Source: a virus. From it: a stretch of DNA of 64,000 bases. Where the stretch lies: IMG/VR virus record IMGVR_UViG_3300020079_000009; one strand, written 5' to 3'. Below are positions 13,731-63,877 of this stretch, piece after piece. The notes beneath the pieces were generated by a model, which ran no database searches, was not told the origin of the DNA, and worked only from the letters and a program-made list of their open reading frames with translations. A program made the translations under genes and the position numbers. Positions within the stretch are counted from its first letter, which is position 1; each line of letters opens with the position of its first letter.

Positions 13731-15401
13731 TTAACTCATAGATTCTTTATTTTGAATGGTTTTTTCACTTTTCTGGTCGTCTGCCTTTTCTGGTCGACCG
13801 GCTTGCTTTTCTGAAGAATTCCCTTCTGATACTTTTTGAGAATTGTTTGAGACTGATTTATTATTTTCGCCCCCGCCTTTTAAATCTTCCATTTTCATAG
13901 TAGAAGACATAAGTGGAGGAATCATAACTTCACTCAACTTCAAAATCTCATTCTCAAACTTAGCAGTAGCCAAAATCGCACTCTGGGTATGACCAAGAGC
14001 AATCTGAGGCAACATCTTAGAATAGCCCATTTGAACTTGCTCTTTATACAACTTGGAAAGTTCCTTATAGTTGTATTGAGTAGTTTCTAACATATAGAAT
14101 TTAAATTTATATTTCTTCCTTTGAGTGTTGAGCTGTTGCACAACATCATTGAAAAATATATGGAATTGCAAAAGTAATGTTCTCATACTTGCTTCGTCTG
14201 ACAAAATTGATTTCTCAAGACTTAAGTTACCATCAGTATTAAATAAGTTATTTGAAACACCGAAAGAGTTATATACCGCACGCTCTACACGCTCAAGTTC
14301 ATCGGTAGAAGTGCTTGTAGTCTTGTCTGAAGTATCCACGGAGTCGATGTCCGCAAATGTTGTCAAAACGTCAACACCAATAGCATTACGTAACATTTGT
14401 ACTGCATTATTATGGATATCTCTTGCTTCATCCACGTCGAAAATCAAATCGCCATTTTTATCCATAGGAAGTTTCTGAACAATAATTTTCAACAACTTTT
14501 GCATCTGCTTGCGGCGGTCTAAATCCTGCGCCGCGTCTAAGTCAAGGATGGCTGGAATAGCATTGATAAACAAAGGAATATCATTTCCGTTACCACTTCC
14601 ACCATTTCCAAAACTAAATTTGACAGTGCTGTCTGGGTCAAGAAGATACCAGCCAGTGTCGCCGAGAAGATCGGTGCGCAATCTACTGTCAATGGTTCTT
14701 GTTTCACTATAATCAGGCTTTAATCTTCCCTGTTTGTAAGCCATATAACCCTTAGCAAACTCTTCTGGGAACATTTTTAGAACTTTCATACGGTAAACAG
14801 TGTCGGGGAATTCATTATCGAAAAATTTCATATTGAATTCAATTGCCGGCTTATTACCAATAAAGTATCTTACTCGACAGTACTTAATAGGAAGTTCCTG
14901 GAGAATGATACCATTTCCACTTGGGACAATATAACCATAATAGCAACCATTTTTGATTACACTAAGTGCAATATTGTCACACATCAACTTGATGTGAGTG
15001 GAGTCAAGGAAGTCAAGCATCTTTTGGAAATCCTTAATAATCTTATCTTCCTTGACAGCATCATCAAAAATCTCTGGAACAATATACCAGTCCCATCTGT
15101 ACATATTTGCGAAATATTCACAAACGCGTTTATAGATACCACTTGTTTTATAAAAGTAATTTGAGATTTCTCTTAATTGCTCGGTGTCATTATCGTACAA
15201 GGCACGATAAATCGCAGCCTTATCAATTCTGAAGCGGGTTGCATGTTTCAAACTGCCCAGATTCAATACGGCATCATCGAGCGATTTTACTCCGACCTTC
15301 ATCTTACCGTAACGAGTAGTTCCTCCCATATCAAAGCCTTTGGAGTGAATAGCGTCCTGTCTACTTGGCTCGTAGAGAGGATTTTCTCTAATCTCTTCCA
15401 A
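13731..15401 (-). CDS. probable portal protein
   Basis: 556-aa ORF immediately downstream of the terminase region (canonical order); size typical of a portal. Confidence 0.5.
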   Translation of the reverse strand: MEEIRENPLYEPSRQDAIHSKGFDMGGTTRYGKMKVGVKSLDDAVLNLGSLKHATRFRIDKAAIYRALYDNDTEQLREISNYFYKTSGIYKRVCEYFANMYRWDWYIVPEIFDDAVKEDKIIKDFQKMLDFLDSTHIKLMCDNIALSVIKNGCYYGYIVPSGNGIILQELPIKYCRVRYFIGNKPAIEFNMKFFDNEFPDTVYRMKVLKMFPEEFAKGYMAYKQGRLKPDYSETRTIDSRLRTDLLGDTGWYLLDPDSTVKFSFGNGGSGNGNDIPLFINAIPAILDLDAAQDLDRRKQMQKLLKIIVQKLPMDKNGDLIFDVDEARDIHNNAVQMLRNAIGVDVLTTFADIDSVDTSDKTTSTSTDELERVERAVYNSFGVSNNLFNTDGNLSLEKSILSDEASMRTLLLQFHIFFNDVVQQLNTQRKKYKFKFYMLETTQYNYKELSKLYKEQVQMGYSKMLPQIALGHTQSAILATAKFENEILKLSEVMIPPLMSSTMKMEDLKGGGENNKSVSNNSQKVSEGNSSEKQAGRPEKADDQKSEKTIQNKESMS

Positions 15402-20336: not shown

Positions 20337-20545
20337 TCTTGTGGGGAGTTATTTCCACAATTACATTTATTCCACATATGCCTGCATGCAAAGAGCTTAG
20401 CAGCGCAGATAAATTTACAGTTATGGTCATATTTTTAATCGGAGGGCCATTTTTTGCAATATCTAATATTCTTGAAGAATTATTAAATTGCATTATGCCA
20501 CCTGGTTGGGGAGGAGACGACGATGATTTCTTCAACAAATACTAA
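20312..20545 (+). CDS. small two-TM membrane protein
   Basis: 77-aa ORF with two hydrophobic segments and acidic C-terminus GGDDDDFF. Confidence 0.35.
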   Translation: MAGTWIAIILWGVISTITFIPHMPACKELSSADKFTVMVIFLIGGPFFAISNILEELLNCIMPPGWGGDDDDFFNKY

Positions 20546-21380
20546 TTTTGAACTAAAAAATATTAAAGAGTTTTGTGCCGATTGGAAAGCCAGTCTTAAA
20601 GATCGGCTGAGCGGGCAGCGCGCAATCCTTCATATTATTCAAGTTGGTGACAATCCCGCATCAACACGCTATGTTCGCAATAAAGTGAAGGACGCACAGG
20701 AAGTGGGCATCGAAGCGCAGGTTATTCATTTTCCAGAATCAGTAACCCAAGAGACTGTCGAACAATCCATTATTCAAATTGTTCAGACTAATGCTGAAAA
20801 TCCAGCTGGCATTATTGTGCAGTTGCCATTACCAATTCATTTGGATAAAAATAGAATTACAAGACTTATCCCAAGCCGCATGGATGTAGATGGATTTAAG
20901 AATGATAGTCCTTATTTCCCTTGCACTCCTCTTGGTATTATCACATATCTGAAAGCATGCAATTTCAATTTTGAGGGGGCAAATGCGGTAGTAATTGGAC
21001 GTTCTGAGATTGTAGGGAAACCCGTCGCAGAAATGTTGGTAGATTTGAATTGCACAGTTACATTGTGCCATAGTAAAACAAAGAATTTGCATACCTTTAT
21101 TGATAGCGCAGACTTGATAATTTGCGCGGTGGGTAAGGCCGGATTCCTGAACTGCTATCCGATCTACGTACCGGTTATTGATGTAGGTATTAATTTTAAT
21201 GAAGAAGGTAAAATGGTTGGAGACTGTATTAATACCGAGAATAGACTGGTAACCCCAGTTCCGGGTGGAGTTGGTCTTTTAACCAGATGCGCACTCTTGG
21301 AAAATATGGCGGTAGCCAAGCTGTTGTTTGAAAATCCTCGGCTTGACGAGGCGCAAATTCCAATTAAATTAGGAGAATAA
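20523..21380 (+). CDS. folD: bifunctional methylenetetrahydrofolate dehydrogenase/cyclohydrolase
   Basis: Collinear FolD motifs: VGDNPAS..YVRNKVK, VQLPLP, MDVDGF, PCTPLG, VVIGRSEIVGKP, CHSKTKNL, ADLIICAVGK, VIDVGIN, VTPVPGGVG. Confidence 0.9.
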   Translation: MISSTNTNFELKNIKEFCADWKASLKDRLSGQRAILHIIQVGDNPASTRYVRNKVKDAQEVGIEAQVIHFPESVTQETVEQSIIQIVQTNAENPAGIIVQLPLPIHLDKNRITRLIPSRMDVDGFKNDSPYFPCTPLGIITYLKACNFNFEGANAVVIGRSEIVGKPVAEMLVDLNCTVTLCHSKTKNLHTFIDSADLIICAVGKAGFLNCYPIYVPVIDVGINFNEEGKMVGDCINTENRLVTPVPGGVGLLTRCALLENMAVAKLLFENPRLDEAQIPIKLGE

Positions 21381-26155: not shown

Positions 26156-26262
26156 GCCAACCGCCCGTACAAAATAAATTAAAAAAGTTTTGAAAAACCT
26201 ATTGACAAACCCACGAACCTATGTTATAATAAATACAGAAATTGAGAGAGGAATTGATAACA

Positions 26263-26937
26263 ATGAACAAGAAAATTATTTACTGCACACTTGATACTGA
26301 AACTGTTGGCGGAGCTTCTAATCCTACTGGAATGTACAACCTCGGTTGCACTATCCACGACAGAGAGGGCAACATTTTCGCAACCGCTTCTCTGCTTGTA
26401 ATGGAACACTATGACGAAATCGCACAGGACGATTACGCAAAGAAGAACTTCCCTATCTATCGCGAAAGACTGATGACTGGCGAAATGTCTGCGGTGGCTA
26501 CCGAAGCCGAAGCACTTTCCATCGTTCGCAACCTTTGCAAGTTCTATGGTGTTCGCTATGTAATGGCTTACAACTCTGCTTTCGACTTTACCAAGACTAT
26601 TTGCAGAGAACTGCTCGACGAGTTTGAGTTCATCGACATTTACTTGATGGCTTTGCAGACCATCTGCCACAAGAAAGGCTTTGCGAACTTCTGCCACGAG
26701 AATGGCTTCCAGTCCTCTTCCAAGAAGTCTTGCTCTACTACTGCACAGACTGTCTATGGCTTCATCACTGGAAATGCTGACTACATCGAAGAACACACTG
26801 CACTGGCTGACGCACTCATCGAAATGGAAATCTTTGTGGCTTGTCTGAAAATGCACAAGAAATTCAACAAGAACATTCACCAGTGGGACGCAAAGGGCAG
26901 AGAGTACAACAAGTGCTTTCCGAAGTGGGTGGACTAA
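26263..26937 (+). CDS. DEDDh 3'-5' exonuclease (DnaQ/RNase T-like) paralog 1
   Basis: Exo motifs YCTLDTETVG (Exo I D-x-E), AYNSAFDF (Exo II), HTALADALIEMEIF (Exo III with His). Class-1 promoter at 26203-26230. Confidence 0.7.
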   Translation: MNKKIIYCTLDTETVGGASNPTGMYNLGCTIHDREGNIFATASLLVMEHYDEIAQDDYAKKNFPIYRERLMTGEMSAVATEAEALSIVRNLCKFYGVRYVMAYNSAFDFTKTICRELLDEFEFIDIYLMALQTICHKKGFANFCHENGFQSSSKKSCSTTAQTVYGFITGNADYIEEHTALADALIEMEIFVACLKMHKKFNKNIHQWDAKGREYNKCFPKWVD

Positions 26938-27048: not shown

Positions 27049-27498
27049 ATGAAGACTATGAACATCACAATCAACTTTGACATGGACGGCACAATCGCTG
27101 ACCTCTATGGAGTAGAAAACTGGCTCGAATACCTCATCGCAGGCGACACATTCCCTTACGCAAACGCAAAGCCTCTGCTTAGACTTGCAACTCTCGCTCG
27201 CAGACTTAACACTCTCCAGAGAAATGGCTACAACATCGCAGTTATCTCTTGGCTGAGCAAGAGTGGCACAGAAGAATACAACAGAGCAGTTACCGAAGTC
27301 AAAATGGATTGGCTCAAGAAACATCTGCCAAGTGTCAACTGGAACGAAATCCACATTGTACCTTACGGCACACCAAAGCAGAACTTCTGCAAAACTCCTC
27401 TCGATGTGCTTTTCGATGATGAAGAACGCAACAGAACAAACTGGACTGGCAAGGCTTATGATGTGCAGAACATCTTGGAAATTCTCGCAGAAATGTGA
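27049..27498 (+). CDS. HAD-superfamily 5'(3')-deoxyribonucleotidase-like hydrolase
   Basis: N-terminal HAD motif I FDMDGTIADLYG (DxDGT) and overall NT5C-like size; class-1 promoter at 26988-27016. Confidence 0.6.
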   Translation: MKTMNITINFDMDGTIADLYGVENWLEYLIAGDTFPYANAKPLLRLATLARRLNTLQRNGYNIAVISWLSKSGTEEYNRAVTEVKMDWLKKHLPSVNWNEIHIVPYGTPKQNFCKTPLDVLFDDEERNRTNWTGKAYDVQNILEILAEM

Positions 27499-27805: not shown

Positions 27806-27958
27806 GGCGCGCCGCCCACGACCCAGGCGGCACGAATTTCCATTATAACACTTCCTCAGCATTTTGTCAATAGGCAATTTGCACAAAGTTGCGAGAGGTC
27901 AAATTCCTGAAATTTGTGCATTTTGACTATTGACTTCTATTGGGGAGTGTGTTATACT
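27806..27958 (+). promoter_or_regulatory. class-3 module with divergent promoters: GC hairpin 27806-27834; antisense promoter (minus strand) -35 at 27865-27870 and -10 at 27842-27847; operator TGCACAA(27880)-N27-TTGTGCA(27920); sense promoter TTGACT(27930)-17-TATACT(27958)
   Basis: Reverse complement reads cctaTTGACAaaatgctgaggaagtgtTATAATgg, a perfect class-1 promoter firing leftward into the GC hairpin and the preceding gene terminator. Confidence 0.5.
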
Positions 27959-29228: not shown

Positions 29229-29381
29229 TGAGTATTCGAGAAGTAGCAAATGCACTGAATGAGATTCGCGCAAACATGAGCAACCCCGAAGGTATGGTGG
29301 TTGCGTCCATCACAAAGGACGAAGTCATTTTTGAGAATGGGGTTGCCTATTCGCTGACAACGAAGCAGAGAACGCGATAAG
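29229..29381 (+). CDS. small hypothetical protein (50 aa)
   Basis: Class-1 promoter at 29165-29192, RBS AAAGGAGA, ATG 29229; terminator at 29385-29412. Confidence 0.3.
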
Positions 29382-29429
29382 GAAGAGCGAGGGGAAACCC
29401 TCGCTTTTTCCATTTCAAAATCCAAAATG

Positions 29430-29590
29430 CATCGGCCGGTCCACGTGCGCGCGGACCGGTGTTTTGGCCTAACCTTCCATTATAACATTTTTCGAGCAAT
29501 TTGTCAATAGGCAAAATGCACAAAGATTTTCCTGTAATTTTGTGCAATTTGCCACTTGTATTTTGGTGGCTGATGTGGTATACTATTATT
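29430..29590 (+). promoter_or_regulatory. class-3 module (GC hairpin CCGGTCC..GGACCGG, antisense promoter, operator TGCACAA-N16-TTGTGCA, TGGTATACT promoter) not followed by a gene
   Basis: Same architecture as 27806-27958; downstream transcript ATTATTGTCAGTAAGGGAGAG... has no ORF before the next class-1 promoter. Confidence 0.5.
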
Positions 29591-29639
29591 GTCAGTAAGG
29601 GAGAGAACAAAATCCCATCAAAAAGATTTTGAAAAAACC

Positions 29640-29870
29640 TATTGACAAAATAAAAAAATTATGTTATAATTATTATAGAAAAAAGGAAAAAGCCATTACC
29701 AAAAAATTTCTAAAAAAGTTTTGAAAAAGGTATTGACAAATCCTAAAGAGTATGCTATAATAGTTATACAAGGTAAGGGAAAACCTACTGAGAGGTCAAC
29801 AAAAAAAATAAAAAAAAAGTTGAAAAAACCTCTTGACAAACAACTCCCAATGTGCTATAATAAGAATGTA
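29640..29870 (+). promoter_or_regulatory. three tandem class-1 promoters (TTGACAAA-N16/17-TGnTATAAT) separated by <60 nt with no intervening ORFs, upstream of paralog A1
   Basis: ttgacaaaataaaaaaattatgtTATAAT; ttgacaaatcctaaagagtatgcTATAAT; ttgacaaacaactcccaatgtgcTATAAT. Each is preceded by an AAAAAAGTTTTGAAAAAACC(T/C) UP-like element. Confidence 0.55.
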
Positions 29871-29937
29871 AAGAGGGACACCTCTTACAGAATAAAAACT
29901 TGGGTCGTGACCTACCACGAGATTGGAGATTGATACT

Positions 29938-30297
29938 ATGGCAAACACTAAGAAGATGACTAAGCGTGAGATGTTCGAGCAGATTAAGGCTTCCTACCCT
30001 CTGACTGAGGCTGAGGTTGAGTTCATTGACCACGAACTCGAACTGCTCGCAAAGAAGAACAGTGCCGAGAAGAAGCCTACCGCTGTGCAGGTGGCTAATG
30101 AGGGCATTAAGGGCGACATTGTCGCAGGTATGGAGCAGGGTAAGTCCTACACCATCACTGACCTGATGAAGACCATTCCTGCCTGTGCCGAACTGAGCAA
30201 CCAGCGTGTGTCTGCTCTTGTTCGTCAGCTCGTCACTGATGGCGTGGTTGTGCGAACTGAGGAAAAGCGTAAGGCTTATTTCTCCCTCGCTGACTAA
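29938..30297 (+). CDS. winged-helix-like protein, paralog A1 of a triplicated family
   Basis: MANTKKMTKREMFEQIK... is ~75-80% identical to the products of 33663..34022 and 34524..34883. C-terminal TITDLMK..LSNQRVSALVRQLVTDG..RTEEKRKAYFS resembles a winged HTH. Confidence 0.6.
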   Translation: MANTKKMTKREMFEQIKASYPLTEAEVEFIDHELELLAKKNSAEKKPTAVQVANEGIKGDIVAGMEQGKSYTITDLMKTIPACAELSNQRVSALVRQLVTDGVVVRTEEKRKAYFSLAD

Positions 30298-30385
30298 GGG
30301 AAAAAAGTCAAGGGGAAATGCAAATTTCCCCTTGACAACCCCTTTGATGTGTGGTATAATGTAATTACAGAAAGGGGGATTGCCT

Positions 30386-30766
30386 ATGACAGCATCCGAG
30401 AGAGAAAAACTGATTGCCAAGCACATGGGTCTGTTAGGTATCAGCCGAGAGGAAGCCGAACAGTTGGTCGCTGATGATGAAGCAATCGACAAGGGAGCAA
30501 AACTCTTTGAGTTGAGTGCCGAGCAAGAAAAGGCAAGCAAAAAGGCAAGAGCCATTGGAACAAAGACCACCACCACAACCAAGACCACAACCAAGAGAGA
30601 ACGCAAAGCCGACAACGACAAGGCAATGCTGATTGACGAAATCAAGCAAGCCCTTGAGGGATTGGAAAGCATTGAGGGAATTGAGGTTACGAACGCCGAG
30701 AGGGAAATGCTTTTCCACTGCAATGGGCGAAAGTTTAAGGTGGTACTGTCTGCCCCTCGTTCCTAA
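30386..30766 (+). CDS. partner protein B1 (paralog of 35007..35375)
   Basis: MTASEREKLIAKHMGLLGISREEAEQLVADDEAIDKG... aligns with ..LMKNLGISEEEALQVIADDKAIDRG.. Thr/Lys-rich linker. Confidence 0.5.
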   Translation: MTASEREKLIAKHMGLLGISREEAEQLVADDEAIDKGAKLFELSAEQEKASKKARAIGTKTTTTTKTTTKRERKADNDKAMLIDEIKQALEGLESIEGIEVTNAEREMLFHCNGRKFKVVLSAPRS

Positions 30767-30789
30767 CTTGTCAATGGGCGAAAGTCACA

Positions 30790-30970
30790 AACTTTCGCCC
30801 TAATTTTTGTGCATTTTTACCACTTGACAAATCGGGCCGGCTGTGGTATAATGGCCGCCCGTGCACAAGTGCGCGGGCCGGTATTCCTGTCAATAGTTAA
30901 TTTCAACAAAAATGCGGGCGAAAATTTGTGCAAATTGCCTATTGCAAAATCTCCCGAAACGTGGTATACT
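30790..30970 (+). promoter_or_regulatory. class-3 module with two promoters (TTGACA..TGGTATAAT inside a GGCCGGC hairpin, then TTGCAA-17-TATACT) and TGCACAA motifs
   Basis: cacTTGACAaatcgggccggctgtggTATAATggccgcccgTGCACAAgtgcgcgggccgg ... aaaatTTGTGCAaattgcctaTTGCAAaatctcccgaaacgtggTATACT. Confidence 0.5.
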
Positions 30971-30994
30971 AATAATGTCAGGAGGGATAGAACG

Positions 30995-31240
30995 ATGTTA
31001 GAACTGAACCAAGAGGAAAAGAAAGTAATCGAAAAGGTAGTTGACGGAATGACAGAATGCGGTCTGTTCTGCGGTCGGTACGATGCAAAGAATGGCAATG
31101 AGCATTTCATGTATGGGGTGAGCACTGTAATGGAATACCTCGCCTATCTTGTCAGCGATGAGTATGGGGATGAGTTCTCCGATGCTTTTACAAAAAATAT
31201 GATAAAAAGTGAAAAAAAGGTATTGACAAACGAGCATTGA
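30995..31240 (+). CDS. hypothetical protein (81 aa); C-terminus overlaps next promoter (..KKVLTNEH)
   Basis: Class-3 promoter at 30937-30970, RBS GGAGGGA, ATG 30995. Confidence 0.45.
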   Translation: MLELNQEEKKVIEKVVDGMTECGLFCGRYDAKNGNEHFMYGVSTVMEYLAYLVSDEYGDEFSDAFTKNMIKSEKKVLTNEH

Positions 31241-31283
31241 TGTGCTATAATAATTACAGAAAGAAACGAAAGAGGTAAACGCT

Positions 31284-31757
31284 ATGAATACACAGTTACT
31301 TATTACATTTATCATTCTTAACATTCTGAATGTTATCATTCAGACAGTGAAAAGTATCGCCACTGTGAAGTGCGGTAAAGGGGTCGCCGCAATCGTAAAT
31401 GCTGTTGCTTTTGGTCTTTACACAATTGTCACTGTTTACTTAATGTGTGAACTTGACCTTTACTTAAAGGCTGGCATTGTGGCTCTGTGCAACCTTGTTG
31501 GTGTGTATGTTGTTAAGTGGTGCGAAGAAAAGGCACGCAAGGACAAACTTTGGAAAGTTGAAGCAACTGTTCCCCACGAATGGACTGACGCAGTACATTT
31601 TGATTTGAAAGACATTCCCCACAACTATGTGGAAAATGTTGGAAAATATACCCTTTTCAATTTCTACTGTGCAACACAGAAAGAGAGTGCAAAGGTGCGT
31701 GACATTCTCGCACAGTATGAAGTGAAGTATTTTGTGAGCGAAAGCAAGACCCTTTAA
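31284..31757 (+). CDS. membrane protein (3 TM N-terminal + soluble C-terminal domain)
   Basis: Class-1 promoter at 31224-31252, RBS AAGAGGT; hydrophobic N-terminal half. Confidence 0.5.
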   Translation: MNTQLLITFIILNILNVIIQTVKSIATVKCGKGVAAIVNAVAFGLYTIVTVYLMCELDLYLKAGIVALCNLVGVYVVKWCEEKARKDKLWKVEATVPHEWTDAVHFDLKDIPHNYVENVGKYTLFNFYCATQKESAKVRDILAQYEVKYFVSESKTL

Positions 31758-31863
31758 TGGGTCAGCTTTTCGCCCGGGCGCAAAATATTTTTCAAAAACC
31801 TATTGACAAATCAAAATGAAAGTGCTATAATAATTACAGTTGATACGAAAGGATTTGATACCC

Positions 31864-32601
31864 ATGGCTCGCAAGAAAGAATTATTTTTAATCATCGACA
31901 CTGAAACAGCAAACACCATTGAACAGCCTTTGTGCTATGACATTGGCTATGCAATCTGTGACAGACAAGGCAAGATTTACCTTGAAAGAAGTTTTGTGGT
32001 TTCTGAAATGTTCCTCGACCACAAAGACTTGATGCAAAGTGCCTACTTTGCTGAAAAGATTCCCCAGTATTGGGATGACATTAAAAATGGCACTCGCACT
32101 TTGAAAAGCATTTTCAACATTCGCAAGCAAATCCATGAGGACATGAAAAAGTATTCCATTCGCAAGGTGGGTGCTTACAACATGGGTTTTGACAAGAGAG
32201 CATTGAATAATACAATTCGCTATTGTTCTCAATCTCGCTGGCGTTGGTTCTTCCCTTGGGGAACTGATTACATTTGCATTTGGAACATGGCTTGTCAAGT
32301 GGTTCTCAATCAAGTTTCCTATGTAAAATTTGCTTTACAGAATGGTTTAATTAGCGAAAGCGACAACATTCAGACAAGTGCTGAGGCTTGTTACAAGTTT
32401 CTGAAAAAGCAAGTTGATTTTGTGGAAAGCCACACAGGACTTGAGGATGTGAGAATTGAAGTTGAAATTCTCGCAAAGTGTTACGCAATGCACAGAAAAC
32501 TTGAAACTAAAATTTCCCCTGCGTGTTGGAGAATCCCCCAGAGAACACGCAAGGAAATGGACTTGAAAAAAGTTTTCAAAAATAGTGGGGAAAGGGCTTG
32601 A
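31864..32601 (+). CDS. DEDDh 3'-5' exonuclease paralog 2
   Basis: LIIDTETAN (Exo I), AYNMGFDKRAL (Exo II), HTGLEDVRIEVEIL (Exo III); class-1 promoter at 31803-31832. Confidence 0.65.
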   Translation: MARKKELFLIIDTETANTIEQPLCYDIGYAICDRQGKIYLERSFVVSEMFLDHKDLMQSAYFAEKIPQYWDDIKNGTRTLKSIFNIRKQIHEDMKKYSIRKVGAYNMGFDKRALNNTIRYCSQSRWRWFFPWGTDYICIWNMACQVVLNQVSYVKFALQNGLISESDNIQTSAEACYKFLKKQVDFVESHTGLEDVRIEVEILAKCYAMHRKLETKISPACWRIPQRTRKEMDLKKVFKNSGERA

Positions 32602-32659
32602 CAAAAGCCCTCCCCCATGGTATAATGAATACAGAAATTAAGGAAAGAGGTTGATACTA

Positions 32660-32818
32660 TGTTAGAACTTATTTGTCAAATTCCTGACCACATCGGTTGG
32701 GTGCTCGTTGGTGTTGTTGGCTGTCTGTGTGTGCAGATGCTTGGTCTGTTGATTGGTACTACCATCCAGGCAATCAAGGAACGAATTGAAGACCGCAACG
32801 AGGAATGCGAGGGTTAAT
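32660..32818 (+). CDS. small membrane peptide (52 aa)
   Basis: Promoter TTGACAaaagccctcccccatggTATAAT, RBS AAAGAGGT; hydrophobic core; terminator 32806-32832. Confidence 0.3.
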
Positions 32819-32844
32819 CCCTCGCTTTTTTGTTTGAGATTTCA

Positions 32845-33000
32845 GCGCCGCGCGCACGAACGTAGCGCGCGGAATTTACCATTATACCATACCCCGGCAT
32901 TTTTGTCAAGAGAAAATGTGCACAAAGATCGAGAAATAAAAATCCTGTAATTTGTGCATTCTGTCTATTGCAATCTGCTTCTGGATGTGGTATACTATCT
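32845..33000 (+). promoter_or_regulatory. class-3 module (GC hairpin CCGCGCGC..GCGCGCGG, antisense TTGACA-17-TGGTATAAT promoter on minus strand, operator, TGGTATACT promoter)
   Basis: Reverse complement is cTTGACAaaaatgccggggtatggTATAATggtaaattccgcgcgc... Confidence 0.5.
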
Positions 33001-33099
33001 ATGTCAGGTGAGGGGAGCACCCAAGAGGAGCTCAAAAAAACTTTGAAAAAAGTTAAAAAACCTCTTGACAAATAGCGCCGAGTGTGCTATAATAAATAC

Positions 33100-33300
33100 A
33101 GAAGTTAAGGGAAGCGACCCGAAGAGGGAAGCCCACGAGAGCGATGTAAGACTTCCCCCTTGAGCCAAGGCTCTTGCTTCTGACCGCAAGGTGTTCGCGT
33201 TTGCGGTATACAAGTGTGAACCAGTGCCCCAGAGGTTGAAGTAATAGGGGATTATGCGCGATACAATACCTCACACAAAAAAGTCAAGAATCTTGAAAAA
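33100..33300 (+). ncRNA. candidate noncoding RNA 1 (~200 nt, purine-rich, GC-rich relative to flanks) transcribed from the class-1 promoter at 33065-33093
   Basis: No RBS-preceded ORF; GC ~55% versus ~38% background; multiple local hairpins (e.g. ACCGCAAGGTGTTCGCGTTTGCGGT); ends at the next promoter. Confidence 0.4.
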
Positions 33301-33340
33301 AGGTCTTGACAAATACCGCAAAGTGTGGTATAATGATTAC

Positions 33341-33560
33341 AGTCAAGAGGGGAACCTTGACAGCGAAAGCCACCAAGGACAGTGGAAACAGACACGAAGC
33401 GAACTGAAACCCAAAGGATACACGAATCCCAGTAGCCCCCACAGAGCGTGGCAAAGCGATTGCGTGGTGAGGGTAGACTTAGGGCTGGGCCAGCAACAAG
33501 GCTGAGAAGTGGGCGAGTAGCGAAGATAAGAAAAAAAGTCGCGAATTTTTTTCGAAAACC
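33341..33560 (+). ncRNA. candidate noncoding RNA 2 (~220 nt) from the class-1 promoter at 33306-33334
   Basis: Purine-rich, no plausible ORF start with RBS; ends with AAAAAAAGTCGCGAATTTTTTT near the next promoter (33563-33591). Confidence 0.4.
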
Positions 33561-33662
33561 TCTTGACAAATCAAACCCCATGTGGTATAATTAAGATGTT
33601 CCAAGAGAGGAACGAAACTTCAAAAAGGGTCGCAACCAATAGCGAGAAATGGAGACGATACT

Positions 33663-34022
33663 ATGGCAAATGTTAAGAAGATGACTAAGGCTGACTACTT
33701 CCGCCAGATTATGGCAAACTACAACCTCACTGCTGACGAAAAGGCTTTCGTTGAGCATGAGCTGGAGCTTCTGGCAAAGAAGAACTCCGCAGAGAAGAAG
33801 CCGACTGCGGTTCAGGTCGCAAATGAGGGTATCAAGGCTGACATCCTCGAAGCCATGGAGAGTGGCAAGAAGTACACCATTACTGACCTCATGAAGAGTG
33901 TCGATGCGTGCGCTGACCTCTCCAATCAGCGAGTGAGCGCACTGGTGCGCCAGCTGGTTACTGAGGGTTCTGTGGAGCGCACTGAGGAGAAGCGCAAGGC
34001 TTACTTCTCCAAGGTGGACTAA
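33663..34022 (+). CDS. winged-helix-like protein, paralog A2
   Basis: MANVKKMTKADYFRQIM... paralog of A1/A3; promoter at 33563-33591. Confidence 0.6.
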   Translation: MANVKKMTKADYFRQIMANYNLTADEKAFVEHELELLAKKNSAEKKPTAVQVANEGIKADILEAMESGKKYTITDLMKSVDACADLSNQRVSALVRQLVTEGSVERTEEKRKAYFSKVD

Positions 34023-34039
34023 GGGCAAGGGGCGCAAGC

Positions 34040-34270
34040 CCCTCCCTCCCCTCTCTCAATTTTCACTTGACCCCTGGGGTGATTCGCTCCCCTGGGGGTT
34101 TTGTGCATTTTGCACAAAGCGCCGGCCCGGTCACGGCCAGCGTGACCGGAATTTTCCATTATACCACCGGCCGCAAATTTTGTCAAGAGAAAAGTTGCAC
34201 AAAAAATAAAAAATAATTTTCCTAAAATTTGTGCATTTTGACACTTGTATTTTCTCTTGGTCTGTGGTAT
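34040..34270 (+). promoter_or_regulatory. class-3 module: terminator GGGGCGCAAGCCCC, adjacent palindrome TTTGTGCAtttTGCACAAA (34108-34128), GC hairpin CCGGTCACG..CGTGACCGG, antisense promoter, operator TGCACAA-N..-TTGTGCA, TGGTATACT promoter with no downstream gene
   Basis: Near-identical to the 29430-29640 module (duplicated cassette). Confidence 0.5.
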
Positions 34271-34523
34271 ACTATTATTGTCAGTAAGGGAGAGCCGAAT
34301 TGATAGAGGTCAAAAAAAGTTTTTAAGAAATTTCAAAAAACCTCTTGACAAATCCCCCAAGATGTGCTATAATGAATACATCAAAGGGAGAGAGAAGTCA
34401 ACAGAGAGTTGAGAAAAAAAATAAAAAAACTTCAAAAAACCTCTTGACAAATCGCTCAACCTATGATATAATTAAATCATCAAAGGGAAGGAAAACCCAA
34501 CAAACCAGAAAGGAATTGATACT

Positions 34524-34883
34524 ATGGCTAATACTAAGAAGATGACTAAGAGAGAAATGTTTGAACAGATTAAGGCAAACTATGCCTTGAACGCAGACGA
34601 GATTGCGTTCATCGACCACGAGTTGGAATTGCTCGCAAAGAAAAACTCTGCTGAAAAGAAACCTACTGCTGTACAGGTTGCCAACGAAGGCATCAAGGCT
34701 GAAATCCTTGAAGGTATGGAAGTCGGCAAGAAGTACACTATCACAGATTTGATGAAGTCTGTGCCTGCGTGTGCAGAGTTGTCCAATCAGAGAGTGTCTG
34801 CCCTTGTCAGACAGTTGGTAACTGATGGCTCTGTTGAGAGAACAGAGGAAAAGAGAAAGGCTTACTTCTCCAAAGTAGCCTAA
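34524..34883 (+). CDS. winged-helix-like protein, paralog A3
   Basis: MANTKKMTKREMFEQIKANYALNADEIAFIDHELELLAKKNSAEKKPTAVQVANEGIK...; promoters at 34348-34378 and 34443-34471. Confidence 0.6.
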   Translation: MANTKKMTKREMFEQIKANYALNADEIAFIDHELELLAKKNSAEKKPTAVQVANEGIKAEILEGMEVGKKYTITDLMKSVPACAELSNQRVSALVRQLVTDGSVERTEEKRKAYFSKVA

Positions 34884-35006
34884 CTCCCCCAAGGGGGCAG
34901 AAATGCCCCCTCCCCTAAAAGGGCGGTAGAAAAAAATTTTGCAAAACCCCTTGACAGATAGCCTTAACTGTGCTATAATAAGGGTACAGTAAAGGAGTTG
35001 ATAACT

Positions 35007-35375
35007 ATGACAGAACAGGTTGCAAAGCTGATGAAAAATTTGGGTATCAGCGAAGAAGAGGCTCTGCAAGTCATCGCAGACGATAAGGCAATCGACAGGG
35101 GCGAGCGAATGTCCTTCGACCTTTCCAAAGAAGAAGAGAAAGCCGCCAAGAAGTACGCAAATGTGGGCGAAAAAACTGTGAAAACCCCACGAAAAGCGCC
35201 AGTTCGCAAGGAAAATGCGACAAAATCGCAGATAATTGCAGAAATTTCGGCATTTTTGAGCGAAAAAGGCTACGAAATGGTCGAAATCACCAATAAAGAG
35301 CGCCAAATCGCCTTCAAAGTTGGTGAAAATGACTATGAATTGACCCTTGTGCAGAAAAGAAAGCCGAAAAAGTAG
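35007..35375 (+). CDS. partner protein B3 (paralog of 30386..30766)
   Basis: Class-1 promoter at 34941-34969, RBS AAGGAG, ATG 35007. Confidence 0.5.
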   Translation: MTEQVAKLMKNLGISEEEALQVIADDKAIDRGERMSFDLSKEEEKAAKKYANVGEKTVKTPRKAPVRKENATKSQIIAEISAFLSEKGYEMVEITNKERQIAFKVGENDYELTLVQKRKPKK

Positions 35376-35404
35376 AAAAATCGCCCCAAAAGGGCGATTT
35401 TTTC

Positions 35405-35538
35405 GTCATTTTGCACAAAAACCGGCCGTTTTCGCCTGCGGCGGGCCGGAATTTCGTCAATTAGCAGATTCCACAAAGTTTTGGAGCGAAAATTGTGCAA
35501 AATTACCTGTTGACATTTCTCCCGAAATGGTGTATACT
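35405..35538 (+). promoter_or_regulatory. class-3 module (TGCACAAA, GC hairpin CCGGCC..GGCCGG, TTGTGCA, TTGACA-17-TATACT) driving gene 35564
   Basis: cgtcatttTGCACAAAaaccggccgttttcgcctgcggcgggccgg...aaaatTGTGCAaaattacctgTTGACAtttctcccgaaatggtgTATACT. Confidence 0.5.
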
Positions 35539-35563
35539 ATGTATAGAAAGTGAGGGAAACAAA

Positions 35564-35764
35564 ATGGAACAAGTTACGAAGTTTGTACTATCACGATTAC
35601 AACTTGCTGAACAGCGCCCTGTTTCTGCGAGCGTGTTTGAAGCACAAGCCTATGGGGCACTGGTTTACCATTGTGAGTTGAACCCCCAAGATGAAGAAAT
35701 GCTCATTCCGATGTGGGAAGAATGGCAACAAACATTTTGGAAAATAATTTCTGAAACCCCTTGA
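35564..35764 (+). CDS. small hypothetical protein (66 aa)
   Basis: Class-3 promoter at 35510-35538 (TTGACA-17-TATACT), RBS GTGAGGGAAA, ATG 35564. Confidence 0.4.
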   Translation: MEQVTKFVLSRLQLAEQRPVSASVFEAQAYGALVYHCELNPQDEEMLIPMWEEWQQTFWKIISETP

Positions 35765-36337: not shown

Positions 36338-36374
36338 AAACCTCGGATTTTTTATTTTTGTTTCAAAAAACACT

Positions 36375-36745
36375 TGACAAGTGCGCCCGGGTATGGTATA
36401 ATAATAGTAGGTAGAGCGGGCCCTGGACGGAGGCCAGGTACCGAATTTCCGATCGGTACCCCCATATGCGATTTTTTCGGTGGAAAGTGCGGCCCTTCCA
36501 TATGCGTTCAATTTCCCGTAAAACCCGGCCGCCGATCGGTTCTTGTTTTCCCGATCGGTTCGCACCATATGACCATCCTGGCCGCAAAATCTTAATTCAA
36601 AATGCCTGGTTTCGGGCTCATATCGCCGCGTTTACATCTTCTCACGAGTTTGTGTTCAGCCCGAGAAAAATTTGACATTTTGAATTAAATTTGATATAAT
36701 ATAAAAAAAGGAGTCATTGCCGATCGGGACGCGCACCGACCGCAT
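36375..36745 (+). ncRNA. candidate ~300-nt structured noncoding transcript from promoter TTGACA-N17-TGGTATAAT (36375-36403); contains three CCGATCGG and three CCATATG palindromes
   Basis: No ORF >20 codons with RBS; GC-rich; local stems (CCTGGACGGAGGCCAGG, GGTACCGAATTTCCGATCGGTACC, TTTCGGGCTC...GAGCCCGAGAAA). Confidence 0.35.
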
Positions 36746-36808
36746 TTGATTTTTATAAAAAAATATGGTATAATATATACATAAGATATGAAAGAGAGGT
36801 AATTACCT

Positions 36809-37395: not shown

Positions 37396-37519
37396 GGGTA
37401 ACGAAGACGGTGACGATGGAATTTTGATCAGCATGTCGCGGGCCGATCGGCCACCACTTCCACTGGATTTTACTGGATTTTCACCATTCATAACCAAGAG
37501 CAAAAGAAAAAGCCGAGGG

Positions 37520-38424: not shown

Positions 38425-38545
38425 AAATGCCGATTTTGCCGAAAATTTTTAACAACTATTGCCGAAAATTTTTAACACATTGCTTAGATGTACAAAATTT
38501 TAACACTTTTATATAGGTGTCTAAATTTTTAACAAATCTCATTCG
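38425..38545. repeat. iteron array (left of HTH gene): GCCGAAAATTTTTAACA x2 and (A/G)GATGTACAAAATTTTAACA / GGTGTCTAAATTTTTAACA
   Basis: Direct repeats at 38430, 38460, 38486 and 38517 ending in TTTTAACA. Confidence 0.6.
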
Positions 38546-39143
38546 TAAGCCATTCTAATTCATAGATTGTCTTGATATTCTTAAATGAAGTATCGTCCTG
38601 TTCCTTTGTAGTCATATGGTATTTAATCAGTCCCAATTTCTCCAATACATAAAGAATATTCGTAATAGTATCATCGTTACTTCTTGTTGTAGAACAAATT
38701 CCAATATTCTCTTTCACTTGAGCCAATGTGAACTGGAATGCTTTACAACCAGTTGCATAGTATCTATTAAATAGATACACATATGTATTAATACTGTGCT
38801 CACTTAATGTATCAGTAATCAGTTTCAAAGTCTTATATGGCACGAGTGAAGCGATATCATTCGCCAAAGGTAGAATTAAAAACGAATTCTCGTCTTTCTT
38901 CGTGACGAGCCCTAAATCTACGAGATTGTTAAACTTCTTAGAAACTGTCTGACGGCTCATATTAAACATGGCAGATAACTTTGAGAAGTTAATCTCTTTC
39001 TTCCCAACAGTTCTCTCACCAGTCTTTTCGTCATAAGAAGAAATGCACTGAAGGTGAGCATAGAGAATGTCATAATATCTCTTATCAGCACAAATCTGTT
39101 TTACCTTCGGGACCTGACGAGAGTCCCTTTTCATTTCAAGCAT
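38529..39143 (-). CDS. HTH DNA-binding protein flanked by iterons (candidate repressor or replication-initiator/ori-binding protein)
   Basis: AGGAGG 8 nt upstream of ATG 39143 (MLEMKRDS...). HTH segment SKLSAMFNMSRQTVSKKFNNLVDLGLV. Opposite orientation to surrounding genes; direct repeats GATGTACAAAATTTTAACA on both sides. Confidence 0.55.
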   Translation of the reverse strand: MLEMKRDSRQVPKVKQICADKRYYDILYAHLQCISSYDEKTGERTVGKKEINFSKLSAMFNMSRQTVSKKFNNLVDLGLVTKKDENSFLILPLANDIASLVPYKTLKLITDTLSEHSINTYVYLFNRYYATGCKAFQFTLAQVKENIGICSTTRSNDDTITNILYVLEKLGLIKYHMTTKEQDDTSFKNIKTIYELEWLTNEIC

Positions 39144-39209
39144 GCAACTATTCCTCCTTTGCCATACATAATATATGAACAAAGTTGTTAATGGGTTAAC
39201 AGAATCTAC

Positions 39210-48865: not shown

Positions 48866-49279
48866 ATGACTAACGCTAAGATTACTAAGAAAGACAAGTT
48901 CGCAATGATTCTCGACATTCTCGCCACTTCCGACCATGCAGATGCTGATATGCTCACTGAGTTCGTGGGCAACGAGATTGCTCTGCTCGAGAAGAAGGCT
49001 GCTAAGGCTAAGGAAGCCGCTGCTAACAAGAAGGCTGAGGCTGACGAGCTCACTATCGCAGTTGAGAATGTTCTCACTGATGAGTATCAGACTATCGCCG
49101 AGGTTACTGCCTGCATCGAGGGCGAAGATGTGACTACTGCTAAGGTTGCATATCGCTTGAACGCACTCGTTAAGGCTGGTGTGGCTGAAAAGGCTGAGAA
49201 GACTATCCCTGGCGGCGAGGGCGTTAAGGCTCGTAAGGTTCAGTCTTACAGAATCGCACAGGTTGCTGACGCTGAGTAA
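48866..49279 (+). CDS. hypothetical protein, distant relative of the A-family winged-helix-like proteins
   Basis: Similar N-terminal MT.AKITKKDKF.. and EIALLEKKAAKAKE.. segment as A1-A3; terminator 49283-49322. Confidence 0.45.
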   Translation: MTNAKITKKDKFAMILDILATSDHADADMLTEFVGNEIALLEKKAAKAKEAAANKKAEADELTIAVENVLTDEYQTIAEVTACIEGEDVTTAKVAYRLNALVKAGVAEKAEKTIPGGEGVKARKVQSYRIAQVADAE

Positions 49280-57985: not shown

Positions 57986-59362
57986 ATGAAATGCGGATTA
58001 AATTGTATGAATAAAGAGCGCAGTGTCGCGGTGTTTTACACCTGCGGCACCTGCAATCTAAAATGTAGATATTGTAACATCGATAAGAATCCTGTGTTAG
58101 CTAAGATTGATGAAAAGTTAGCAGAGAGTTTTGAAGGCGATTACTATTTTAACCAAATGAAAGAGTGGTTTCCAAATATTGACCAGCTTCGTAAGATTGA
58201 AACTTGGGGTGGAGAGCCATTTTTGCATATGGAAAGAATTTATAATTTGATTACTCAAGTTATTGAATATTATCCATATTTCGACCAGTTCTTCTCTTCT
58301 ACAAACTTCTCATATCCAGAGTGGACAAATAAAGTATTTGGTTTAACTGACCAGTTTGCCAAGTACCCAGAAAGAACTTTTAGATTCACTTTACAGCTTT
58401 CTATGGACGGTCCTGAGTATATCAATGACCCAAATAGAGGTAAGGGCGTAACCAAGAGATGTATTGAAAATTTCAATAAGTTAATGGATATGATTCCTGA
58501 AAGACTTCCAAATAATGTTGTTTTAGAAATCGTATTCAAGCAGACTTTGGATACTTATTCAGTAAGAGAACTTTGCGATAAGCAAAAGATTATTGAGTAT
58601 TTCCAATTTTTTGAGAATTTTTATTTGAGAATCAATGAGTTAAATCTGCCAAATGTATTGATGTCTTGTACAGTACCTAACACTGCCGTACCTGCGCCAG
58701 TCACTAAGAAAGATGGCGAAATCTTTGCTGAGTTCTGTCGTCTTTGCAATGAAATTGAAGTTGAGAATTATAGAAACCATTACTTTAGATACTATGAAAG
58801 TATCATGCCTTATTTTGGCGAACCAATGCCTTTAAATGCAACATATGAACACTGTTCTACTTTGTGCGGCAGTGGGTCTATTATGGTTTGTTTATTGCCA
58901 GATAATCTGGTATCTACTTGCCATGAAGGATTTACTTCATTATATGAAGACTATAAGAAGTTTGCACAATCTTCTGGACGTGTTGAAGATGGTACTATTA
59001 ACTTTAACCAGTGGGTAAATGAAGATGGTCCTGTATATGTGTTGGATGCAGAAGGTTATAAAGAGCATGAGAGATTTATGGGTTATTATAACCATCCATG
59101 GTCAACTGCGCGAATGGTTAACACGACCGCTTTGATTCGTACTCTCGCTCTTGCAGATGAGATTGAAAGAAAATACTTGAATGAAGATGAAGCGTTGCGT
59201 GCTGCGCATTTTATGGCAGGTCATTCTTCTTATTGTATCAAGGATAATTATAATGTAACAGGTTCTCATAGCTTGACACCTGTTGGTTTGTTTAAGTTAT
59301 TATTAAACGGAGCGAAAGCTTATATTGAAGAAGGAGAAAGGAGAGTAAGATCGAATGGATAA
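57986..59362 (+). CDS. radical SAM enzyme with C-terminal SPASM/twitch-like Cys cluster
   Basis: CGTCNLKCRYC (Cx3Cx2C), GGEPFL SAM-binding motif, C-terminal CSTLCGSGS...C..C cluster. Confidence 0.8.
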   Translation: MKCGLNCMNKERSVAVFYTCGTCNLKCRYCNIDKNPVLAKIDEKLAESFEGDYYFNQMKEWFPNIDQLRKIETWGGEPFLHMERIYNLITQVIEYYPYFDQFFSSTNFSYPEWTNKVFGLTDQFAKYPERTFRFTLQLSMDGPEYINDPNRGKGVTKRCIENFNKLMDMIPERLPNNVVLEIVFKQTLDTYSVRELCDKQKIIEYFQFFENFYLRINELNLPNVLMSCTVPNTAVPAPVTKKDGEIFAEFCRLCNEIEVENYRNHYFRYYESIMPYFGEPMPLNATYEHCSTLCGSGSIMVCLLPDNLVSTCHEGFTSLYEDYKKFAQSSGRVEDGTINFNQWVNEDGPVYVLDAEGYKEHERFMGYYNHPWSTARMVNTTALIRTLALADEIERKYLNEDEALRAAHFMAGHSSYCIKDNYNVTGSHSLTPVGLFKLLLNGAKAYIEEGERRVRSNG

Positions 59363-62280: not shown

Positions 62281-62352
62281 AATGCAATAGTCAAACGGTT
62301 AAGACATTACCCTTCCACGGTGAAAGTTGGGGTTCGATTCCCCATTGCGATT
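62281..62352 (+). tRNA. tRNA-Gly(UCC) (no encoded CCA; one A-A mismatch in acceptor stem)
   Basis: Manual fold: acceptor AATGCAA/TTGCGAT, U8A9, D-loop with GG, anticodon stem TTACC/GGTGA, loop CTTCCAC (U33, UCC, A37), T-arm TGGGG-TTCGATT-CCCCA. Flanked by complementary AAGGCAC (62251) and GTGCCTT (62358). Driven by class-2 promoter at 62196-62226. Confidence 0.55.
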
Positions 62353-62628
62353 CAGAGGTGCCTTGGAAATAAAAATTCTTTTTGATTTTTTATAAAAAAT
62401 ATGTTATAATATATATGTAAGATAAAGAAAGCCCTTTAATCTTAGTCGTAAAGGAAAGACGCGAGTCCGGCCATCGTATTCACTGTGAGTTCCTCTCGTA
62501 AGAGGGTTGACGGTAGTAGTGCCCAGCGCAACTGGTGAGTAAACAGGTCCGAGGGTATGAATAGGTGTCACGACCACCTAACTTTCTTTGTCTGATATAT
62601 GTATTATATAGGAAAGGAGAAATTATCA

Positions 62629-63801: not shown

Positions 63802-63877
63802 TGCCCTGTAGCTCAGTCGGTAGAGCACGCGGCTGTTAACCGCGCTGTCGTGGGTTCGAGCCCCACCGGGGCAGCCA
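63802..63877 (+). tRNA. tRNA-Asn(GUU) with encoded CCA
   Basis: TGCCCTG-TA-GCTC-AGTCGGTA-GAGC-A-CGCGG-CTGTTAA-CCGCG-CTGTC-GTGGG-TTCGAGC-CCCAC-CGGGGCA-G-CCA; canonical cloverleaf. Class-2 promoter at 63672-63704. Confidence 0.85.

Follow-up and report, generated by a model that had tools for sequence, protein, structure and literature searches.

An old, conserved early-region module of multi-copy, promoter-stacked genes for predicted winged-helix proteins in virus record IMGVR_UViG_3300020079_000009

Host-takeover modules of the SPO1 type consist of small early genes packed behind strong sigma-A promoters. In phage phi29, the site AACTTTTT-15 bp-AAAATGTT, which lies between divergent promoters, is bound by protein p4, and p4 acts in concert with p6, an abundant protein (PMC1904284, PMC3100819); the two proteins control the early-to-late switch at the divergent promoters A2c/A2b and A3 (PMC1904284, PMC3100819), and p6 is required in very large amounts (PMC3100819, PMC10899789). 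The subject of the present work is a locus in a stretch of 64,000 nt from IMG/VR virus record IMGVR_UViG_3300020079_000009 (the whole stretch is called the window here), in which three genes for a small protein, A (A1, A2 and A3), and two genes for a second small protein, B (B1 and B3), lie among closely spaced promoters; a preliminary description had divided it into three cassettes. The locus resembles SPO1 in its dense small early genes, each gene or gene pair having its own consensus host-type promoter and terminator. It resembles phi29 in having two small early proteins in a Firmicutes phage and divergent promoters with a widely spaced inverted repeat (here TGCACAA-N16/26/27-TTGTGCA), and where phi29 needs p6 in bulk the A genes carry stacked promoters.

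We read the locus as part of the early region of a large gut phage whose promoters are of the Firmicutes/Clostridia type, with A as an early, high-dosage, predicted DNA-binding protein that acts with B, the whole being a conserved, old module; in our judgement the case for this reading is evenly balanced. Host RNA polymerase would make A immediately and in large amounts, and A would bind DNA through a canonical recognition helix and wing, acting with B. It would probably reprogramme or organize transcription in the early phase, and its level would probably be feedback-controlled through its own upstream region and a leader RNA. The several A copies would be kept for dosage and/or for combinations with two B types, and not through recent diversifying duplication, while the TTGTGCA motifs would be promoter-linked upstream elements of a general early module whose binding factor is not demonstrably A. 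What had the appearance of a fast-evolving counter-defence duplication is an old, conserved module.

The three A proteins are indeed 119-residue paralogs, as first described: they are 76–85% identical in pairwise comparison, with 87 invariant columns, and their genes are 71–74% identical in DNA. Nei–Gojobori analysis of the copies gave a proportion of synonymous differences (pS) of 0.68–0.76, which is saturated, a nonsynonymous distance (dN) of 0.15–0.22 and an omega (dN/dS) of ~0.05–0.12. Close relatives (loci L001–L008 and L010) share the order A–B … A, A–B, and the orthologs of A1, of A2 and of A3 form separate groups, the three being distinct already in L001, L005 and L010; the ortholog pS in the relatives is 0.35–0.58, with a value of 0.14 for the very close L010. 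With the copies saturated and their orthologs already separate, the triplication predates the divergence of these phages, and the suggestion of a recent tandem duplication has to be given up. Judged from these substitution patterns, the copies are shown to be old and under strong purifying selection. The omega values, and searches of PADLOC, Pfam and NCBIfam that gave no full-length defence or anti-defence match, likewise speak against the rapidly evolving counter-defence locus that had been envisaged. The cassettes are not strictly tandem either, as four unrelated genes (81, 157, 245 and 52 residues; 30995–32817) stand between the first and the second. A fourth, divergent member of the A family (48866–49279) was recognized by hmmsearch (score 25) and by hhalign against the A profile (probability 96.8%, E value 2.4e-10); it is acidic, with an isoelectric point (pI) of 5.1.

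The families extend far beyond the window. With A3 as the query, 6,389 protein clusters (90% identity) were returned, the contigs being as long as ~199 kb, and a search with B3 returned 3,771 clusters (90% identity); with the B profile there were 1,325 clusters at 50%. A (>6,000 clusters at 90%) and B (1,325 at 50%) are thus very large metagenomic families without a characterized member. We analysed 69 loci from IMG/VR and nine further loci, 74 of the total being non-redundant. Each locus has two to five copies of A, which is always multi-copy or nearly so, and one or two of B, bearing out the copy-number variation that was to be looked for among related phages. The pair of A followed by B is shown to be lineage-wide in 130–240 kb phages of the Clostridia type: 96 of the 114 B genes in the non-redundant loci follow an A gene directly (median gap, 91 bp), and this gene neighbourhood supports B as a genuine partner of A. 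The large phages of gut and rumen Clostridia to which A and B belong are without a cultured representative; to judge from their strict early position, multi-copy state and promoter stacking, A and B have a central part in the onset of infection.

Promoter content shows that the A genes are built as very high-output units, with a bidirectional module followed by two or three stacked consensus promoters of the sigma-A type. The 6.3 kb at 29300–35600 contain 27 promoter-like sites (8.9 expected), 17 of which are perfect 12/12 matches to TTGACA-17-TGnTATAAT. A1 and A2 each have a module plus three consensus promoters and A3 has a module plus two (Table 1), in agreement with the tandem consensus promoters first noted before each A gene. 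The same pattern holds for 184 A genes, for which near-consensus promoters within 450 bp on the 5' side number 2.06 on average (at least two in 81% of cases), compared with means of 0.71 for B genes and 0.67 for the background. The stacking and the presence of three to four A copies together suggest a need for very high or finely graded A expression. Strong, compact sigma-A-type promoters such as these could also serve as parts for use in Firmicutes.

The bidirectional module is shown to be a general element of the early region. Its order is the terminator of the upstream gene, a GC-rich hairpin, an antisense consensus promoter, TGCACAA-N16/26/27-TTGTGCA and a sense TGnTATACT promoter. The antisense transcript begins with GGAAAUUYC and enters the GC hairpin directly; over the 50 nt that follow the antisense promoter, the folding energy is −20.6, −17.6 and −20.9 kcal/mol in modules 1, 2 and 3, respectively. 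The modules 5' of the three A genes had been called near-identical. The same ordered elements are found at all three, but a 30-mer at 29576–29605 (TGGTATACTATTATTGTCAGTAAGGGAGAG) recurs exactly at 34265–34294 and is confined to cassettes 1 and 3, cassette 2 departing from it by more than three mismatches. The module is also not peculiar to the cassettes, as had been thought: full or partial copies precede other genes at ~22.4, 25.1, 27.9, 30.8–30.9 and 35.4–35.5 kb, and the 27.9 kb copy aligns no worse than the three modules next to A genes. At least eight copies lie between 22 and 35.5 kb, and the module is kept in distant relatives such as L062 and L009. TTGTGCA was found 28 times (12.3 expected) and the inverted repeat TGCACAA…TTGTGCA six times (none expected). 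Each half-site lies 9–10 bp 5' of its own −35 element, with the halves spaced by N16, N26 or N27, so that the ‘inverted repeat’ is best described as two promoter-linked upstream elements facing apart. A subclass of TATACT promoters at 22441, 25102, 30942 and 35510 (plus strand) combines an upstream TTGTGCA with a spacer of conserved sequence, TCCCGAAA(Y)G, that separates −35 from −10; the three A-gene TATACT promoters do not have this spacer, and the promoters labelled ‘class-3’ are therefore of at least two types.

An obvious candidate for the factor that recognizes these half-sites is A itself, as originally proposed: A dimers would bind the TGCACAA…TTGTGCA inverted repeats, auto-regulate the cassettes and control the other early promoters that bear the module. 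We consider this unlikely. The winged-helix fold predicted for A would suit such a role and the recognition helices of A1, A2 and A3 are identical, but the density of TTGTGCA among the 74 related loci ranges from 0 to 16 per 10 kb and does not track the A recognition helix. The helix type LTNQRITHMLTDL is accompanied by 7–8.5 TTGTGCA per 10 kb in L040 and L048 and by 0.6–1.0 in L056 and L052; for the type LTNQRVSAIV, the values are 8.4 in L013 and 0.5–1.0 in L022 and L024. Motif-rich and motif-free phages can have helices that are almost the same. Inverted-repeat modules are fourfold enriched 5' of A genes (33 of 91, with 8.7% expected), yet 64% of the modules precede other genes, and phages without TTGTGCA retain A, B, the stacked promoters and the antisense hairpin units. 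The spacing classes N16 and N26/27 differ by approximately one helical turn and phi29 p4 offers a precedent for binding to a widely spaced inverted repeat (PMC1904284); two divergent promoters, each with an upstream element 9–10 bp from its −35, nevertheless suffice to explain the repeat. The enrichment near A thus stands, while the proposal that A is the binder is weakened.

An equally good candidate binder is a 217-residue winged-helix protein encoded at 38529–39182 on the minus strand, between two plus-strand blocks (MarR_2, E value 1e-5; HTH_Crp_2, 2.6e-5; Lrs14, 9e-6). It is kept at 28–32% identity in L009 and L076. In phylogenetic profiling it was present in 16 motif-rich loci and in no motif-poor locus, a comparison in which relatedness and the length of the loci (20 kb) act as confounders. 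We regard this protein as an alternative candidate for binding TTGTGCA, or as a candidate replication initiator; binding by a host factor also stays conceivable.

The antisense promoter and its hairpin form a unit that is more widespread than the motif. In the non-redundant loci, a fold of −15 kcal/mol or lower occurs within 50 nt of 62% of 405 antisense near-consensus promoters, compared with 6% of 2,248 sense promoters. The window has such units at 27870 (−), 29507 (−), 32909 (−), 34186 (−) and 30824 (+), and they are also present in L022, L033, L042, L052, L056, L062, L071, L074 and others. Their hairpins are perfect, GC-rich and 7–11 bp long, vary in sequence with the structure being kept, and are mostly antisense to early genes; lineages from which TTGTGCA has been lost still have the units. 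Production of short antisense RNAs, insulation against read-through, or both, could be their role.

The AlphaFold model of A (A3 as the query, with a 49-sequence alignment) has a mean predicted local distance difference test score (pLDDT) of 87.5, with values above 90 in the winged-helix part. Two N-terminal helices (residues 9–19 and 24–42) are followed by helices 49–64 and 73–84, a recognition helix (88–101) and a β-hairpin wing (104–117; strands 104–109 and 112–117), and a conserved linker motif, KKPTxxQxxNE, lies between the N-terminal helices and the winged helix. A Foldseek search of the PDB matched MarR, ArsR, TubR, MecI and Hop2 winged helices with probabilities of ~1.0 (entries 7wze, 4omz, 3e6m, 1sd7 and 3f72 among them), and almost all of the top 50 matches are winged-helix proteins (probability 0.95–1.0). 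The three-helix bundle, recognition helix and two-stranded β-hairpin wing that define the winged-helix superfamily are all present in the predicted structure; the model and the Foldseek matches thus support the winged helix that had been suspected in the C-terminal half of A.

Several searches concur on A at the level of the fold and assign no family. The Pfam Mnd1 HTH (helix–turn–helix) profile (PF03962) matches A with an E value of 5.5e-5 and a PDB profile search gave Hop2 (2mh2) with an E value of 0.009. A1 scores 23.8 bits with Mnd1 HTH (cutoff 23.5), while A2 and A3, at 20–21 bits, are below the cutoff. This likeness is one of fold only, as context and architecture differ (Mnd1 and Hop2 act in eukaryotic meiotic recombination and have long coiled coils). 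The other Pfam matches, which include MarR_2, TrmB and Penicillinase_R, are weak, and in Pfam every score is below the gathering threshold except that of Mnd1 HTH for A1, which exceeds it by 0.3 bit. A does not fall in the MarR family (PF01047/PF12802), MarR_2 giving 14–16 bits (cutoff 27), nor does it have a MarR-type dimer interface: A ends after the wing at residue 119 and the C-terminal helices are absent from the model. In BFVD, the only full-length matches are uncharacterized proteins of uncultured gut siphoviruses. The start of the recognition helix (S/T-N-Q-K/R) and the basic wing (KRKAYF) are conserved, and no part of A is better conserved than the canonical DNA-contact positions. Only residues ~35–119 of A, the linker and the winged helix, are matched (60–73% identity) in L093, L094, L097, L098, L100, L102 and L103, which are contigs of metagenome-assembled genomes (MAGs) of Lachnospiraceae, Acutalibacteraceae, Faecalimonas and Faecousia; other elements or prophages may thus carry the winged-helix part behind an N-terminus of another kind.

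With PADLOC, residues 11–116 of A2 align to positions 103–200 of the 305-position Csa3 profile (E value 2.5e-6), and CARF3 models also match (1.9e-5). These matches invite an explanation in which A is a stoichiometric host-takeover or anti-defence factor, either one that binds some abundant component of the host or serves as its decoy (RNA polymerase or a sigma subunit, for example) or a CARF-less mimic of Csa3, its dosage serving to titrate the target. The extreme promoter stacking on three to four gene copies, the near-neutral charge of A and the position of its genes among small early genes without an assigned function would all suit such a factor. The likeness to Csa3, however, spans only the generic linker and winged helix, and Csa3 is not among the top PDB-profile or Foldseek matches; at 119 residues and without a CARF (Rossmann-like) sensor domain, A is not a member of the Csa3/CARF-winged-helix group. 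B has no match at all in PADLOC, and A, apart from these partial matches, has none to a defence or toxin–antitoxin protein. An omega of 0.05–0.12 with lineage-wide conservation is unlike typical fast-turnover anti-defence genes, and the canonical DNA-contact positions of A are what is conserved best. We think a titrating factor improbable, somewhat more so than binding of A to the inverted repeats.

A high dosage would also be expected of a protein with an architectural, chromatin-like role, coating the DNA of phage or host without sequence specificity, as do phi29 p6, SPO1 TF1 and archaeal Sso10a. NCBIfam does give a match of A to the Sso10a family (E value 0.007), whose members have both a winged helix and a coiled coil, but the score of 16 bits is far under the family cutoff of 60. 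The N-terminal helices in the model of A could mediate oligomerization; the pI of 6.6–8.6 and the net charge of 0 to +2, on the other hand, are unlike those of basic nucleoid proteins. The recognition helix varies between lineages and is common to the paralogs of one genome, a pattern that fits specific recognition better than an architectural role. Of the explanations weighed here we give the coating protein the smallest chance.

B1 and B3 are paralogs, as had been recognized (40% identity, E value 1e-22), and represent two ancient orthogroups, B-alpha and B-beta, that co-occur in many lineages. In the model of B (pLDDT 76), three helices at the N-terminus are joined through a basic, disordered linker (52–70) to a C-terminal helix and a three-stranded sheet. 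A SAP/HeH-like nature had been suggested for B; profile and fold comparison revealed no recognizable helix–extended–helix motif. An exhaustive profile search for domain fusions found that all matches to B are stand-alone proteins of ~100–150 residues.

The two gene-less units of cassette 2 lie 5' of A2 and do not, as had been supposed, replace its B gene, which is merely absent after A2. A covariance model (R1) built from six sequences of the first unit (segment 1), which we call the A-leader, finds 13 loci with E values of 1e-12 to 1e-50, always 79–360 nt 5' of an A gene; these loci include L013, L019, L020, L024, L080 and L087, whose A proteins are ~60–70% identical to those of the window. 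In the 13-sequence alignment, 96% of cells are paired, with compensatory changes in 19 of 36 pairs; none of 500 shuffles reaches the observed pairing and slid controls are 29–47% paired, although the observed pairing is somewhat inflated, as the alignment is fitted to the model. In an unfitted MAFFT alignment, the 6 bp helix 33195–33200/33256–33261 is formed by three wholly different complementary sequences. Indels of 2 nt and 1 nt break any reading frame. No match in Rfam 15 was obtained for 33095–33305 at the gathering threshold, nor at an E value of up to 1 over 29300–35700. The strong covariation marks the A-leader as a conserved structured RNA and makes it a candidate new RNA family. No terminator follows 33095–33305, and the A-leader is most simply seen as the long 5' leader of the distal A2 transcript. 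The second unit, segment 2, is unrelated to segment 1; nhmmer found homologs of it just 5' of A in L013 (14252–14481), L089 (3234–3464) and L095 (15–133), and with only three to four distinct homologs the covariation is weak. Folding of the single sequences is not significant (z of −1.15 for segment 1 and −0.26 for segment 2), so that the structure of segment 1 is visible only by comparative analysis. We also considered the gene-less segments as decayed A or B genes; this was rejected, blastx against all open reading frames of the loci giving no similarity to A or B.

A more far-reaching form of our reading would make A, B, the A-leader, the TTGTGCA modules and the antisense GC-hairpin transcripts one undescribed early circuit common to a large and abundant lineage of 130–240 kb phages of gut and rumen Clostridia, in which the leader senses A, B or a metabolite and doses A, and A, produced in very large quantity, drives the early-to-middle switch or host takeover. 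We offer this as a long shot, on a par with A as the binder of the repeats; if it were true, both the leader, as a cis-regulatory RNA, and the hairpin units, as phage small RNAs or insulators, would represent new classes.

Several observations weigh against the reading of A as an early, high-dosage DNA-binding protein acting with B. DNA binding by A is predicted, the sole indication being the conserved canonical contact positions, and the near-neutral charge (pI and net charge as given above), which disfavours histone-like coating, would also fit a protein-binding winged helix. The number of promoters is only a proxy for A expression. Across the lineage the A copies cluster by genome, with a within-genome pS mostly of 0.5–0.8 and a few younger duplications (L032, for example, with a pS of 0.09), in contrast to the ancient B orthogroups; repeated duplication, old gene conversion or co-evolution are possible causes. 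No family or fold relative of B was found with Pfam, PHROG, NCBIfam, profile or fold searches. No residues of A were found to vary with whether the neighbouring B is alpha or beta, the mutual information being low and confounded by phylogeny.

Table 1. Coordinates of the A and B genes and of the predicted regulatory elements in the window
Feature	Position	Strand	Remarks
Terminator of the gene upstream of module 1	29389–29409
Module 1 GC-rich hairpin (CCGGTCCACGTGCGCGCGGACCGG)	29436–29459		3' of both the antisense promoter and the terminator listed above
Module 1 antisense consensus promoter	29479–29507	−	TTGACA-17-TATAAT with TG; 12/12
Module 1 inverted repeat	29517–29546		TGCACAA-N16-TTGTGCA; halves 9 bp 5' of the divergent −35s
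Module 1 sense ‘class-3’ promoter	29556–29584	+	TTGTAT-17-TGgTATACT
Three stacked consensus promoters 5' of A1	29642–29861	+	−35 at 29642, 29733 and 29833; 12/12 with TG
A1	29938–30297	+	119 aa; two N-terminal helices and winged helix (predicted)
B1's own consensus promoter	30332–30360	+	−35 in the 3' arm of the post-A1 hairpin 30307–30336
B1	30386–30766	+	126 aa; B-alpha orthogroup; C-terminus ...LSAPRS
Module 2 GC hairpin; antisense consensus promoter	32846–32872; 32881–32909	−
Module 2 inverted repeat	32919–32958		TGCACAA-N26-TTGTGCA
Module 2 sense promoter	32968–32996	+	TTGCAA-17-TGgTATACT
Distal consensus promoter, leader RNA	33065–33093	+	12/12
A-leader, conserved structured non-coding RNA (model R1)	33095–33305	+	Driven by the promoter at 33065
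A-leader helices	33099–33105/33176–33182; 33109–33114/33152–33157; 33195–33200/33256–33261; 33205–33211/33216–33222		Smaller helices also present
Middle consensus promoter, A2	33306–33334	+	12/12
Second conserved non-coding element (segment 2)	33336–33562	+	Between the middle and proximal A2 promoters
Proximal consensus promoter, A2	33563–33591	+	12/12
A2	33663–34022	+	119 aa; B gene absent downstream
Module 3 palindrome TTGTGCAtttTGCACAA; GC hairpin; antisense consensus promoter	34101–34117; 34127–34149; 34158–34186	−
Module 3 inverted repeat	34196–34235		TGCACAA-N26-TTGTGCA
Module 3 sense promoter	34245–34273	+	TTGTAT-17-TGgTATACT
Two stacked consensus promoters 5' of A3	34345–34472	+	−35 at 34345 and 34444; both 12/12
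A3	34524–34883	+	119 aa; query for the structure model
B3's own consensus promoter	34951–34979	+
B3	35007–35375	+	122 aa; B-beta orthogroup; C-terminus ...LVQKRKPKK
Fourth, divergent A-family member	48866–49279	+	137 aa; outside the early cluster

Minus-strand late and structural genes occupy 1–19.8 kb of the window, with the portal gene at 13731–15401 (PHROG 2739), and the plus-strand early region extends from ~19.9 to 37 kb, with ~36 near-perfect TTGACA-N17-TGnTATAAT promoters. The contigs of relatives are mostly 100–240 kb, with a phage size of ~200 kb in relatives. The nearest annotated phage is the distant phAss-1, with a portal protein that is 38% identical (PMC10607447); tblastn with A3 detected no A homolog in phAss-1. 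A DNA similarity search of 50,697 phage records gave two trivial short matches only, and tblastn with A3 against the same number of records gave one unannotated faecal contig, phi29-family records being absent. The portal-protein relatives are phages of Firmicutes, and the homologs in genome collections are on MAG contigs labelled mostly Clostridia, Acutalibacteraceae and Lachnospiraceae; these labels suit the sigma-A-type promoters of the window and point indirectly to a Clostridia-type host.

Four neighbouring genes travel with A and B: those for a 231-residue protein without an assigned function (26242–26937; 75 of 78 loci), an NT5C-like 5'-nucleotidase (27049–27498; 149 residues, Pfam E value 2.3e-6; 63 loci), a 157-residue membrane protein (31284–31757; 41 loci) and a 245-residue protein with DEDD-exonuclease-like motifs (IDTET...HTGLEDV) and no Pfam match (31864–32601; 75 loci). 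Auxiliary genes of the window are those for a FolD-type methylene-tetrahydrofolate dehydrogenase/cyclohydrolase (20523–21380; Pfam E value 2e-41), two adjoining radical-SAM-like proteins (57986–60806; PHROG 1802), tRNA-Gly(TCC) (62281–62353) and tRNA-Asn(GTT) (63802–63877). Another gene-less region, at 36374–36800, has consensus promoters at 36374 and 36672, shows 73–95% DNA identity in L001–L010 and has several hairpins in which compensatory changes are seen. Of the five copies of the CCGATCGG palindrome in the window (0.32 expected), four lie here and one at 37443; the region may be an array of binding sites or encode a non-coding RNA. In L012, a dense iteron-like array of direct and inverted TTTGTAAAAA / TTTTTACAAA repeats at 14590–15060, 3' of the A/B cluster, is possibly a replication origin; TTTGTAAAA of L012, which had been considered as an alternative ‘operator’, proved to belong to a separate iteron-like array and not to the promoter module.

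Set against known proteins, A is like MarR, ArsR and BlaI/MecI in its three-helix bundle and β-hairpin wing, but is without the C-terminal dimerization helices of MarR and the C-terminal domain of BlaI/MecI, and has its own N-terminal helical hairpin with the KKPTxxQxxNE motif. The PADLOC Csa3 and CARF3 models align to its helical linker and winged helix; A differs from Csa3 in lacking the CARF domain and in that its genes belong to the early region of a phage and not to a CRISPR locus. SPO1 is not known to have promoters stacked on a multi-copy family, antisense promoter–hairpin units or a structured leader RNA. The p4/p6 system of phi29 is the closest functional picture, as an analogy without homology: there is no sequence or fold relationship, PHROG and Pfam gave no link from A or B to p4 or p6, and p4 uses an N-terminal hook and not a winged helix, while p6 is not known to be B-like. 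The locus here further differs in its three to four A copies and two B types, and in comparative data that count against A as the binder of the repeat. Small early phage winged-helix proteins with a partner are a known kind of system; genuinely new here are the candidate RNA family, the lineage-wide antisense promoter–hairpin units and the stacking of promoters on a multi-copy gene family.

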